This document shows, in pieces, positions 8,137 to 10,408 of a DNA stretch of 44,824 nucleotides. Below the pieces are notes generated by a model. That model was not told the DNA's origin, searched no databases, and saw only the letters and a program-made list of their open reading frames with translations. Position numbers and translations under genes: made by a program. The stretch lies in IMG/VR virus record IMGVR_UViG_2778261573_000004, positions 1 through 44,824 of that record; one strand, written 5' to 3'. Within the stretch, counting starts at the first letter, position 1; every line of letters begins with the position of its first letter. This DNA is from a virus. Its lineage: Duplodnaviria; Heunggongvirae; Uroviricota; Caudoviricetes.

Positions 8137-8149
8137 CACGCCTCCGGAA

Positions 8150-8177
8150 ATAAAAAAACCGCCATGTCGGCGGTTTA
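8150..8177 (-). terminator. Rho-independent terminator after the small membrane ORF
   Basis: Minus-strand RNA AAACCGCCGACAUGGCGGUUU followed by UUUUUUUAUUU; perfect 5-bp GC stem, 5-nt loop. Confidence 0.7.
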
Positions 8178-8199
8178 CATATGCACTGAAATGACTTAT

Positions 8200-8448
8200 C
8201 TATTTATCGCTGGATCCATTACGGTCAAGAGATTCGGCGATCCTGTAAAGATGCTCAGTCGCCTTGAATGAGTTCATTAGGAACTCATAAAGCACACGTA
8301 AAAGCAATGCACTTACCACCGATATCGTAATCGCCGTGAAATTCATTGAGACAACAGAAAAAACGAGGAAAATGCCAATTACCAGGTAAACAAGCGCAAA
8401 AACCTTTGGAGTATAAATGGCTTTTGCTCCAAAAACTTTTTCATTCAT
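8200..8448 (-). CDS. Small hydrophobic membrane protein (cargo/moron candidate)
   Basis: 82 aa with a long hydrophobic stretch (VFALVYLVIGIFLVFSVVSMNFTAITISVVSALLL); RBS AGGAAG 5 nt before the ATG; followed by its own terminator; not part of the canonical Mu-like tail gene order. Confidence 0.55.
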   Translation of the reverse strand: MNEKVFGAKAIYTPKVFALVYLVIGIFLVFSVVSMNFTAITISVVSALLLRVLYEFLMNSFKATEHLYRIAESLDRNGSSDK

Positions 8449-8479
8449 AACTTCTTCCTTAACGAAATGACGACAGTGA

Positions 8480-10408
8480 TCAGTAATTCATGGCCGTTGT
8501 TATTCTGCCATTATTTTCCGCATTATAGGTTTTTCGCTCACCCTTATCATTAACCATTGTGATTTCGAGCTTAAGTGGTTGTTCTGACATTGCCTCTTTA
8601 AGAGACTTAGCCAGATTGTCGCCGAGTACACTTTCATCACTTTTCTTACCCGTATCACTCAGAATGATGGATTCCCGATTTCTGTTCTGCGAGCCTGAGA
8701 GAATATCAGTTTCATCACTCGGGTTACTAAGAGTGCTGGAGTCACGATTTCCAGTTTGCGAACCTGAGATAATATCATATCGCTGTTGAGCCAGAACTTC
8801 CGGGCTACGTAAACCCTTCCACCGATCGTCAATGATGGCCGTCCGGACAGAATCGCTCAGTTCATTTTCGGTATACGGCTGTGCTCCGCTTTCATGTTTA
8901 ATCATTGCTGCCATCAGTGTTTTTAACACATCAGGATCGTGGAGATTAATACGCTGCTGCGCTCCAAACCCAGTACTTTTTGATACGGAATCAATATATG
9001 CACGAGTATTATTCTCTGATTGCGGAGCATAGGTATGAATAATCCCATCCAGAGTATTATTCCCCCTGTCACCATACAACATCAGCTGTCTCGCCATTGC
9101 AGCTCTTCCGTCGGCATCATTCGCAAAGGTAGAAAATCCGCCATTTTTACCCGTTGCGTTTGCTGCAGCCCTCAAATTACCGGGATTATTATTTCTGAAG
9201 CCAATTGCGTTATTCCTTGTTTCCCCGTAAGGAACATTGCCGCGTGCAACGTTGGATTGTGGCTGGCTGATAGCGGATAAGTCATTCTGCAATTGAATCG
9301 CAGAATCGGTCGCGCGGTAATTCGCATCGTACCGCTTTCTTACAGCATCAGTCATGAAACCCGCGTCAACCTGCCCACGTTCACTGCGGGGTAAGCTGTT
9401 ATAAAGTTCCTTATCGTTCTGAATGCGCCGTAGTTTCTCAGCATCATTGCTGTTGATAAAACCGAGAGCATGAGACAGCCCAGTAAAATCACCATTAGTG
9501 AACAGATCGGTAACACCTTCGAGGCCGTCTTTGACTGAACCATCCGAAAGAATGGTCTTAAGTGCCTTGTTTTTTGAACGTTGCCACAGACCATCCCAGG
9601 ATGCGCTGAGCTCATTCATAGTGCCGTTCACTTCACTCAATTGCTGATTTAGTGCCGGATCCACAGTCAGACCAAATTCATCCGATTTCGCCAGCAGCTT
9701 TTTCATGCGCTCACCGTCACGCATTAGCGCCAGCAATTCGGGCGTCAGCCCAAGTGCATCAGCGGCGGACTTCTGCTGTTCAGGTCGCAAGGTTGGAAAA
9801 ATTTTTGCGATAGACTCCAGTGTTTTAAGGGTATTTACTGAACCATCGCTGTTTTTTTGGATTTGAGCACCAATTTGCGCCATCGCTGCCATAACCCCCT
9901 CGTTTTTACCACTGGCAGCCTCATTGAATGCTTTGAAAATACCTTCTATTGATGCATTAGCGCTCTCGCTGTCTGCCCCAAGAATACGCATTGCCCCGGA
10001 AAGTCGGGTAAAATCGTCAACGCGCATTCCCGCATTTTTTGCCGAGACATCAAGATTATAGGCCTGACGGGATGCCTCCCGAAATCCATAAGCGACCTGT
10101 TTCAGTCCGTAGCCGGCAGCACCGGCTAACCCCAGCGCCCCCATCTTCCCCGTGAGCTCCCCCACCATTTTCAGTGGGGGAACCATGTCGCCAATAAACT
10201 GCACGTTATCCCGCGCGCTCTTCGACATATTCTCGAGGCGAGAAATAAAACCGCTCAGTCCGTCGGCTGTTTCCTGACCGCCTAACTTGAGCCCTTCTTT
10301 AGTTTTATCTAGCTTCGGCTCCAGGTCACGGACAGCCTCATTAATGCGGTCTATAGCCTCGCTAACCTGGTCGCTGGCCACCAGCTCAAAATCAAAAGAA
10401 TTACTCAT
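8480..10408 (-). CDS. Tail tape measure protein
   Basis: 642 aa, Ala/Gly-rich coiled regions, internal tandem repeats; located after the tail assembly chaperone and its frameshift extension. Confidence 0.85.
   Translation of the reverse strand: MSNSFDFELVASDQVSEAIDRINEAVRDLEPKLDKTKEGLKLGGQETADGLSGFISRLENMSKSARDNVQFIGDMVPPLKMVGELTGKMGALGLAGAAGYGLKQVAYGFREASRQAYNLDVSAKNAGMRVDDFTRLSGAMRILGADSESANASIEGIFKAFNEAASGKNEGVMAAMAQIGAQIQKNSDGSVNTLKTLESIAKIFPTLRPEQQKSAADALGLTPELLALMRDGERMKKLLAKSDEFGLTVDPALNQQLSEVNGTMNELSASWDGLWQRSKNKALKTILSDGSVKDGLEGVTDLFTNGDFTGLSHALGFINSNDAEKLRRIQNDKELYNSLPRSERGQVDAGFMTDAVRKRYDANYRATDSAIQLQNDLSAISQPQSNVARGNVPYGETRNNAIGFRNNNPGNLRAAANATGKNGGFSTFANDADGRAAMARQLMLYGDRGNNTLDGIIHTYAPQSENNTRAYIDSVSKSTGFGAQQRINLHDPDVLKTLMAAMIKHESGAQPYTENELSDSVRTAIIDDRWKGLRSPEVLAQQRYDIISGSQTGNRDSSTLSNPSDETDILSGSQNRNRESIILSDTGKKSDESVLGDNLAKSLKEAMSEQPLKLEITMVNDKGERKTYNAENNGRITTAMNY

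Follow-up and report, generated by a model that had tools for sequence, protein, structure and literature searches.

A probable accessory membrane-protein gene of the DUF4282/phrog_12129 family between the tape measure gene and a predicted backbone terminator in an Escherichia coli prophage

Between the tape measure protein (TMP) gene and the DNA-circulation gene of a lambdoid Escherichia coli prophage (IMG/VR record IMGVR_UViG_2778261573_000004, positions 1 to 44,824; this whole stretch of 44,824 nucleotides (nt) is referred to below as the window), we identified a small open reading frame (ORF) of 82 codons that is very probably an optional accessory cargo gene for a membrane protein. The tail module in which it lies is of the SfV-type Mu-like kind, and the genes considered here are all on the minus strand. 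As a moron-type accessory gene the ORF belongs to a kind of element that is already known, and its family is catalogued (DUF4282, phrog_12129) yet uncharacterised. Taken as a whole, the explanation that we tentatively prefer is an accessory moron-type gene whose product would form a hairpin in the inner membrane and block the entry of phage genomes. The specific mechanism, superinfection exclusion by a genome-entry block in the manner of HK97 gp15 or T4 Imm, is drawn from analogy and is possible rather than probable.

An optional insert ahead of a shared terminator

The elements of the junction are listed in the direction of transcription, from the TMP gene to the DNA-circulation gene.

8480..10408, minus strand: TMP gene, 642 amino acids (phrog_2276, E = 2.9e-152)
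8480..9030, minus strand: variable low-GC (guanine-cytosine) mosaic segment at the TMP 3' end, adjoining the small ORF (GC 0.37-0.47)
8522..8550, minus strand: candidate sigma-70 promoter, ATGATA-17-TATAAT, inside the TMP coding sequence (consensus match 10/12)
8464..8471, minus strand: left copy of the 8-base-pair (bp) direct repeat GTCATTTC; the empty site retains a single GTCATT
8454..8460, minus strand: Shine-Dalgarno-like AAGGAAG of the small ORF, as read from the sequence
8200..8448, minus strand: small ORF, 82 amino acids, DUF4282/phrog_12129 family, ATG at 8448
8413..8415, minus strand: codon 12 of the small ORF, TAT (Tyr) in the window
8188..8195, minus strand: right copy of the 8-bp direct repeat GTCATTTC, the two copies being 276 nt apart
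8146..8176, minus strand: intrinsic-terminator-like hairpin AAACCGCC-GACAT-GGCGGTTT with T-run, a backbone element
8141-8145, minus strand: GGAGG, ribosome-binding site (RBS) of the DNA-circulation gene
6733..8145, minus strand: DNA-circulation (Mu N-like) gene with its RBS (PF07157, E = 2.8e-30; probable ATG at 8136)

The initial annotation of this DNA had reported a hydrophobic ORF of 82 residues with an RBS between the TMP and DNA-circulation genes, followed by a hairpin with a U7 tract and the RBS of the next tail gene; all of these elements were found in place, and RNA folding returned the same hairpin. The TMP stop (8480) is separated from the small ORF by 31 nt, with AAGGAAG 8-14 nt ahead of the ATG, and the stop of the small ORF is followed after 23 nt by the hairpin and T-run, then by GGAGG and the DNA-circulation gene. 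For the latter a start at ATG 8136 is more likely than one at GTG 8139, where the program-made ORF list begins it, because a relative (L004; L numbers denote the loci compared) reads GTT at the GTG position. PGAP takes the ATG start in E. coli NCTC9040 (L001), to which the segment tested is 100% identical, and RBS spacing also favours ATG 8136.

Comparison of related tail modules bore out the earlier suggestion that a gene is not normally present at this position, and revealed an optional rather than a universally conserved gene. Among 5426 complete E. coli genomes, 33 hold the TMP/DNA-circulation region, the small ORF being present in 22 of these prophages and missing from the other 11. The relatives phiNP, BZS1, SfV and ST64B, which form plaques or have been cultured, lack it as well, and in them the gap between the TMP and DNA-circulation genes is 33-45 nt (the DNA-circulation protein of phiNP is 68% identical to that of the window). 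The spacer between the two genes is 68 nt long in L004 and L005, which have an empty site. Aligned with the filled locus, the empty sequence matches on either side of a 276-nt indel, on the left as far as GTCATT and on the right from GTCATT onward. Homology between the window and L005 restarts exactly at the hairpin (query position 926). As a possible footprint of transposition, the 8-mer repeat bounding the indel is only marginally unexpected, being reached in 2.3% of shuffles, and it fits insertion and microhomology-mediated deletion equally.

The composition of the region is also mosaic. At a GC content of 0.398, the small ORF falls below both the window (0.518) and the DNA-circulation gene (0.535), and the low-GC tract also takes in the last ~550 nt of the TMP gene (GC 0.413 over the last 300 nt). 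When the TMP gene of the window was compared with those of L003 and L004, identity was ~100% over the first ~1350 nt and then 84/65-70/35-40/60-87%. These alignments mark the final ~550 nt of the TMP gene as a hot-spot of recombination.

The initial annotation had also held that Mu-like tail operons normally lack a terminator at this position, which is wrong for SfV-type modules, as all of those examined have one. In the empty sites L004 and L005 the hairpin, T-run and RBS are identical to those of the window, and phiNP, BZS1, SfV and ST64B each possess a GC-rich hairpin and T-run at the same junction, with a different, compensating stem in each. Outside the window, junction hairpins of SfV-type modules lie at the following positions.

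L124, ~2971-3003: junction hairpin
L125, ~2968-3003: junction hairpin
L126, ~2935-2979: junction hairpin
L127, ~2956-2988: junction hairpin

Given the identical hairpin of the empty sites and its positional homologues in the SfV-type modules examined, the terminator belongs to the backbone and not to the insert. In the window the terminator scan found a 9-pair stem (5 G-C pairs) at 8176..8156, and hairpin and T7 together span 8176..8149. Although a simple terminator scan of the 4.3-kb surroundings returned 3 sites versus 3.7 in shuffled sequence, which is no excess, the hairpin is more than a chance match because its position is conserved across relatives and its stem changes on both sides. 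A covariation count over six other sequences found both partners changed in 3 of 6 stem pairs and 97% of cells still paired, which only 1 of 500 shuffles equals; the window, GF-2 and one further sequence stood out of MAFFT register, and the window hairpin was read directly. Rfam searches of 7800-8900 gave sub-threshold hits only, and no tandem repeats were found in 8100-9200.

From these comparisons, the backbone of the SfV-type Mu-like tail modules examined conserves a predicted terminator or attenuator behind the TMP gene. Possible roles for it are control of expression stoichiometry, insulation of the baseplate genes, and stabilisation of mRNA 3' ends. In lambda, RNA polymerase modified by Q reads through terminators; by analogy, a terminator inside the late operon would be tolerated, since the Q-like antiterminator of the same prophage would permit read-through. 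The earlier description of the ORF as a moron in the late operon is accordingly upheld only in part: extra DNA, deviant GC content and the cargo sites occupied by its relatives agree with it, whereas a terminator of its own, as expected of a moron under the Juhala/Hendrix definition, was not found, the hairpin being shared with the backbone.

A predicted membrane hairpin and its family

The 82-residue product contains no charged residue between K15 and R51, with Lys and Arg flanking this stretch on both sides. AlphaFold2 modelled a helix at residues 3-33, a three-residue turn and a second helix at residues 37-79 (mean predicted local distance difference test score, pLDDT, 81). Hydropathy, charge distribution and this model fit a two-helix hairpin that spans the inner membrane and has its N and C termini on the cytoplasmic side, in agreement with the membrane protein proposed initially. 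The predicted cytoplasmic extension of the second helix is conserved (LRVLYEFLM-SFKATEHLYRIAE).

The product matched phrog_12129, a family of unknown function, at E = 6.2e-11, and the Pfam family DUF4282 (PF14110) at E = 2.3e-4 with 22.1 bits, under the cut-off of 27. PF14110 was matched by 20 of 21 aligned relatives (best 1.8e-11), and relatives are often named "DUF4282 domain-containing protein" in the source databases. The window product has the hallmarks of the family, namely a length of ~80 residues, two hydrophobic helices, and the TPK and R-x3-E...RIAE motifs. Relatives 51-59% identical to it keep T13, P14, R51, E55, L67 and I70, and the same six positions are invariant in the wide family alignment, in which the membrane helices vary in sequence while keeping their hydrophobicity. 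Ratios of non-synonymous to synonymous substitution rates (dN/dS) are 0.03-0.26 for family pairs with dS of 0.15-0.7, a substitution pattern by which the family, when intact, is judged to be a protein-coding gene under purifying selection.

This is a small family: searching 5.8e9 proteins gave 16 clusters, a profile search of 1.84e9 gave 23 representatives, and a broader profile gave 48 clusters. Those members for which a name is given all belong to Enterobacterales. Searches of 50,697 phage records by tblastn identified only two carriers, Edwardsiella phage GF-2 and Klebsiella phage Kp4864-1, and megablast of the 1.5-kb region against the same records gave no match. Searches of PADLOC, NCBIfam and PDB sequences with the product returned nothing meaningful. 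A BFVD fold search with the AlphaFold2 model gave no hit at E <= 1e-3, a helical hairpin being uninformative as a query. No paper on DUF4282 was found in a literature search, and the GF-2 literature does not discuss the GF-2 member, gp19. That protein is homologous (phrog_12129, E = 2.4e-37) and has the TPK and R-x3-E ... FK--E-L-RIAE motifs in common with the window product, from which it differs in that the window clade forms a divergent branch at 33% identity.

To place the family in its genomic setting we collected 113 further loci from IMG/VR and GTDB, which yielded 44 distinct intact members. In 32 of the 44, an ORF of at least 570 residues ends -4 to +61 nt before the small ORF, and all ten upstream ORFs tested, as well as the window's own, are TMPs. 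These upstream TMPs span at least four unrelated PHROG families (3336, 1538/1107, 2013 and 2276). A hairpin followed by at least 5 T lies within 80 nt of the stop in 40 of 44 members (42 by eye) versus 0.9% of random windows from the same loci, and the terminators involve at least 19 different stems. The myovirus GF-2, described as temperate (PMC6372524), has the same layout of TMP, small ORF and terminator as the window: gp19 starts one base past the stop of gp18, annotated as a "lytic tail protein", and the terminator then follows. The order of TMP and small ORF recurs in the temperate Klebsiella phage Kp4864-1. As a separate observation, the tail operon of GF-2 (L009, 7417-9325) contains a P22 immI-like cassette with Arc-like regulators and the anti-repressor Ant, which directly follows the small ORF and terminator and lies between the TMP and baseplate genes.

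Members without an adjoining TMP gene occupy cargo sites, including positions after a P2-type gpD gene and between lysis and terminase genes. One member (L053, 5933-7387, minus strand) stands beside gtrC-like O-antigen conversion genes. In three other loci, L105 (3360-3899), L048 (4275-4919) and L090 (3396-7525), the settings recorded are a site behind a Rha/antirepressor gene and ahead of terminase genes, a site adjoining a transposase, and the interval between a lipoprotein gene and tail-fibre gene J. The members of L053, L105, L048 and L090 each have a promoter-like site ~30-36 nt upstream and a terminator.

A proposed block of genome entry and competing explanations

In the explanation that we prefer, a 276-nt segment consisting of the ORF with its own RBS, and bounded by the 8-bp repeats, would have its place after the TMP stop and ahead of a conserved terminator that was there before it. 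In a lysogen, a weak promoter within the 3' part of the TMP gene would drive the ORF, with the transcript ending at the backbone terminator, and during lytic growth the ORF would be expressed from the antiterminated late transcript. Located in the inner membrane, the product would hinder membrane insertion or channel formation by the tail tip and TMP of incoming phages, and this would block genome entry in a manner functionally like that of HK97 gp15 and T4 Imm.

The putative promoter places its -10 element 73 nt upstream of the ATG of the small ORF and, as a consensus match only, attained a position weight matrix score of 10.7, above all 16 of 16 control windows in the TMP gene. The empty-site relative L004 reads GAATACAGC where the window has the -10 element. 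Across the family, promoter-like sites within 150 nt upstream fall in the top 10% of local controls for 20 of 44 members, with ~4 expected, mainly in members with an intergenic gap.

An entry-blocking role is favoured because HK97 gp15 and T4 Imm fit the description functionally, a matter of analogy and not of family membership. Exclusion by HK97 gp15 was reportedly described by Cumby et al. in 2012. The gp15 gene encodes a small inner-membrane moron protein in the tail operon beside the TMP gene, and imposes a tail-dependent block of genome entry (PMC3594210). As in the window, the HK97 annotation shows the TMP gene adjoined by one for a small inner-membrane protein, with a terminator and the RBS of the next tail gene after it; this small gene is likewise optional among relatives and belongs to a lambdoid temperate phage of E. 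coli. It differs in that gp15 is a YebO-like protein of 62 residues encoded upstream of the TMP gene, whereas the ORF of the window encodes 82 residues, lies downstream, and is followed by the terminator of the backbone. T4 Imm, a membrane protein of 83 residues, binds the TMP (gp29) and prevents genome translocation (bioRxiv 10.64898/2026.03.06.709160). It resembles the window product in size and as an integral helical protein of the inner membrane, and offers a mechanistic model for an entry block; unlike the small ORF, imm belongs to the early genes of a phage that is virulent, and it is unlinked to gene 29. A broader likeness exists to lom and bor of lambda, cor of phi80, fun(Z) of P2 and gtrABC, which are also extra DNA of deviant GC content near late or tail genes and encode membrane or envelope products. 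The difference from such lambdoid morons and conversion cargo is that the promoter of the window is predicted only, the terminator is shared with the backbone, and many members of the family are embedded in operons.

A number of observations weigh against an entry block by this ORF. Profile comparison with hhalign indicated no homology to HK97 gp15/YebO (probability 0.55%) or to T4 Imm (probability 0.79%). Sigma-70 consensus matches show no excess in the region overall. In GF-2, L103, L110 and L113 the start of the small ORF abuts or overlaps the TMP stop (gaps of 0, -1, -4 and 0 nt), and in about half of the TMP-linked members 8-15 nt separate the two; no promoter signal accompanies either group, and expression of these closely or translationally coupled members (gaps of -4 to 15 nt) is probably late and not from the prophage. 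A strict cognate pairing of the small ORF with a TMP C-terminus was considered and is weakened: the same ORF occurs with two TMP C-terminal variants, the 642-residue type of the window and the type of L003, which at 619 residues is 23 residues shorter, and L004 has a TMP of the window's domain type without the ORF, so that the ORF is not strictly paired with one TMP C-terminus. Others of these observations concern codon 12, for which an amber allele, not remarked in the initial annotation, is the majority allele: TAG is apparently present in 21 of the 22 complete E. coli genomes that carry the ORF (read directly in L002, L003 and L010, and deduced for the others from identical percent identity and missing annotation). 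Of the loci taken from IMG/VR and GTDB, 27 of 33 have TAG too, including Citrobacter youngae. Furthermore, substitutions in the window clade are few and mostly non-synonymous. Loss of function of the small ORF is tolerated or even favoured.

The TAG loci lie on at least five backbones whose flanks differ by 1-4.5%, and in L002, L003, L010 and L013-L043 the remainder of the ORF is 99.3-100% identical and in frame around the amber codon. Codon 12 is TGG (Trp) in Enterobacter-type relatives and specifies a hydrophobic residue in distant homologues, while TAT (Tyr) was found only in the window, NCTC9040, L011 and L012. The shortest path connecting these alleles is TGG to TAG to TAT, by which the intact ORF of the window is probably a sense revertant of a widespread knock-out. 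The window has no tRNA gene that could provide a phage-borne amber suppressor, and no Shine-Dalgarno sequence precedes the next in-frame ATG (Met35); on these two grounds the amber copies are most likely null. Their abundance shows that the small ORF is dispensable for prophage maintenance, and the presence of TAT on two backbones hints that an intact copy is sometimes advantageous. As a side observation, NCTC9040 carries two copies of the region, and the small ORF of the second copy (P0007) has Tyr12 with its middle in another frame, which in sequence terms implies two compensating frameshifts. In the NCTC9040 record (L001) the TMP gene is annotated as split and the gp46 gene as frameshifted, and these may be assembly errors.

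The codon-12 data also bear on an alternative in which the ORF is a decaying remnant, acquired once, inactivated by the change from TGG to TAG and carried passively since, the TAT of the window being a neutral reopening of the frame. The prevalence of TAG on its several backbones is what such decay would leave, as are the absence of a Shine-Dalgarno sequence before Met35 and of a tRNA gene from the window. PGAP leaves the amber copies unannotated, and changes past the amber codon are either non-synonymous (F27Y, F27C, T64S) or stop-removing; between L011 and L029, dN is 0.022 and dS is 0. Set against this is the placement of the few substitutions. The window and its nearest TAG neighbours (L019 and L035) have just 3 other differences in 6.2 kb, and of the 3-4 substitutions separating them one restores sense precisely at the stop; for neutral substitution, with 4 changes in 6.2 kb, we estimate the chance of this at ~0.2%. 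L011 likewise has TAT, on a different backbone whose nearest neighbours are TAG; a frameshift was found in just 1 of ~30 amber copies (L039); and the wider family is under purifying selection. Passive decay is regarded as unlikely.

Alternatively, the ORF may be a late-operon partner of its own TMP, co-translated with it during lytic growth and either shielding the inner membrane of the producer from membrane-active or muralytic parts of the TMP, as the immunity protein of a pore-forming colicin would, or conditioning the membrane for the cycle of its own phage rather than acting in the lysogen. This would account for the tight coupling of start and TMP stop in GF-2, L103, L110 and L113 and the short gaps of about half of the TMP-linked members, and for an orientation that is the same as that of the TMP gene, upstream of an operon-internal terminator, in 40 of 44 members. 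The TMPs concerned carry muralytic-like domains, and in the window the variable 3' segment of the TMP gene and the ORF make up a single low-GC block. However, the ORF is dispensable: phiNP and BZS1 are functional with the same tail module and without it, L004 has the same TMP type without it, and the amber allele is widespread. Members also occur remote from TMP genes, with promoter-like sites of their own, and the family is confined to temperate phages and prophages, GF-2 and Kp4864-1 being the sole carriers among the 50,697 records. A partnership of this kind is decidedly unlikely.

A membrane-active toxin, whether a holin or pinholin or an abortive-infection effector, would depolarise the membrane on a trigger through a hairpin whose two ends lie inside and whose C-terminal tail is charged. 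The topology and size of the product resemble those of class II holins of the S21 type, and frequent amber knock-out fits counter-selection of a leaky toxic gene. Conversely, the product matched no holin family in PHROG or Pfam, only phrog_12129 and DUF4282, PADLOC gave no hit, and the ORF lies outside the lysis cassette of a prophage that already has a holin-endolysin-spanin set (23699..25102). As conservation also resides in the cytoplasmic helix and the TPK motif and not in the membrane helices, a toxin is very unlikely. A structural or assembly component of the Mu-like tail, suggested solely by the position in the tail operon right after the TMP gene, is effectively refuted by the absence of the ORF from L004, L005, phiNP, BZS1, SfV and ST64B, by the amber codon in most copies, by the integral membrane hairpin predicted for the product, and by members outside tail operons.

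Prophage setting and significance

The remaining features of the window that relate to the tail module and its expression are the following, the sheath gene being the first in transcription order among the tail genes listed.

11205..12707, minus strand: sheath gene
10830..11201, minus strand: tube gene
10550..10828, minus strand: tail assembly chaperone gene
TMP amino acids 393-540: central muralytic-like domain of the TMP (phrog_873 and phrog_7182 match amino acids 393-541)
5651..6736, minus strand: Mu P-like hub gene, after which further baseplate genes follow
29290..29979, minus strand: Q-like antiterminator gene (phrog_304, E = 4.8e-97)

In the related E. coli prophage L005 (1163-2971), a TMP of the lytic-transglycosylase type (phrog_2013) replaces the type with the muralytic-like domain. 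Elsewhere in the window, two endolysin-like ORFs, at 24166..24606 and 27144..27716 on the minus strand, match phrog_7 (E = 1.4e-71 and 3.7e-66, respectively), and the holin of the lysis cassette belongs to phrog_785. The pair of endolysin-like ORFs suggests that a lysis cassette, duplicated or surviving as a remnant, lies upstream of the holin-endolysin-spanin set that looks functional. A "minor tail protein" gene (phrog_1924, E = 7.3e-63) is located at 22547..23197 on the minus strand, remote from the tail module and between the lysis genes and the terminase region.

Taken together, the data show an optional gene that moves horizontally, encodes a small protein of the inner membrane and is found in tail regions of temperate phages, mostly right behind the TMP gene. 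At present the small ORF stands as an uncharacterised accessory gene that is inactivated in most of its E. coli carriers. Three features were not found described before, and represent modest additions: the recurrent position of the family between a TMP gene and a terminator, the post-TMP terminator of SfV-type modules, and the amber/revertant polymorphism at codon 12. Independent of any function, the results point to an internal terminator that is conserved behind the TMP gene of SfV-type Mu-like tail operons, and to a junction just upstream of it that accepts cargo.

A more specific and speculative extension, which we consider unlikely, is that DUF4282/phrog_12129 represents an unrecognised class of TMP-directed immunity proteins of temperate enterobacterial phages. 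The gene would then stand behind the TMP gene much as a colicin immunity gene stands behind its colicin gene, and its product, in the inner membrane, would bind the incoming TMP of related phages and so prevent a channel from forming; if so, the amber knock-out at codon 12 and its reversion to Tyr would record alternating selection. Should an entry block prove to be the function, the family would be a third one with this activity, unrelated to gp15 and Imm, and it would provide a genomic rule for recognising entry-blocking genes in prophages, namely a TMP gene followed by a small ORF for a two-helix membrane protein and then by a terminator. Such a rule, if true, would help to predict the resistance of E. 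coli, Klebsiella, Salmonella and Enterobacter to phages.

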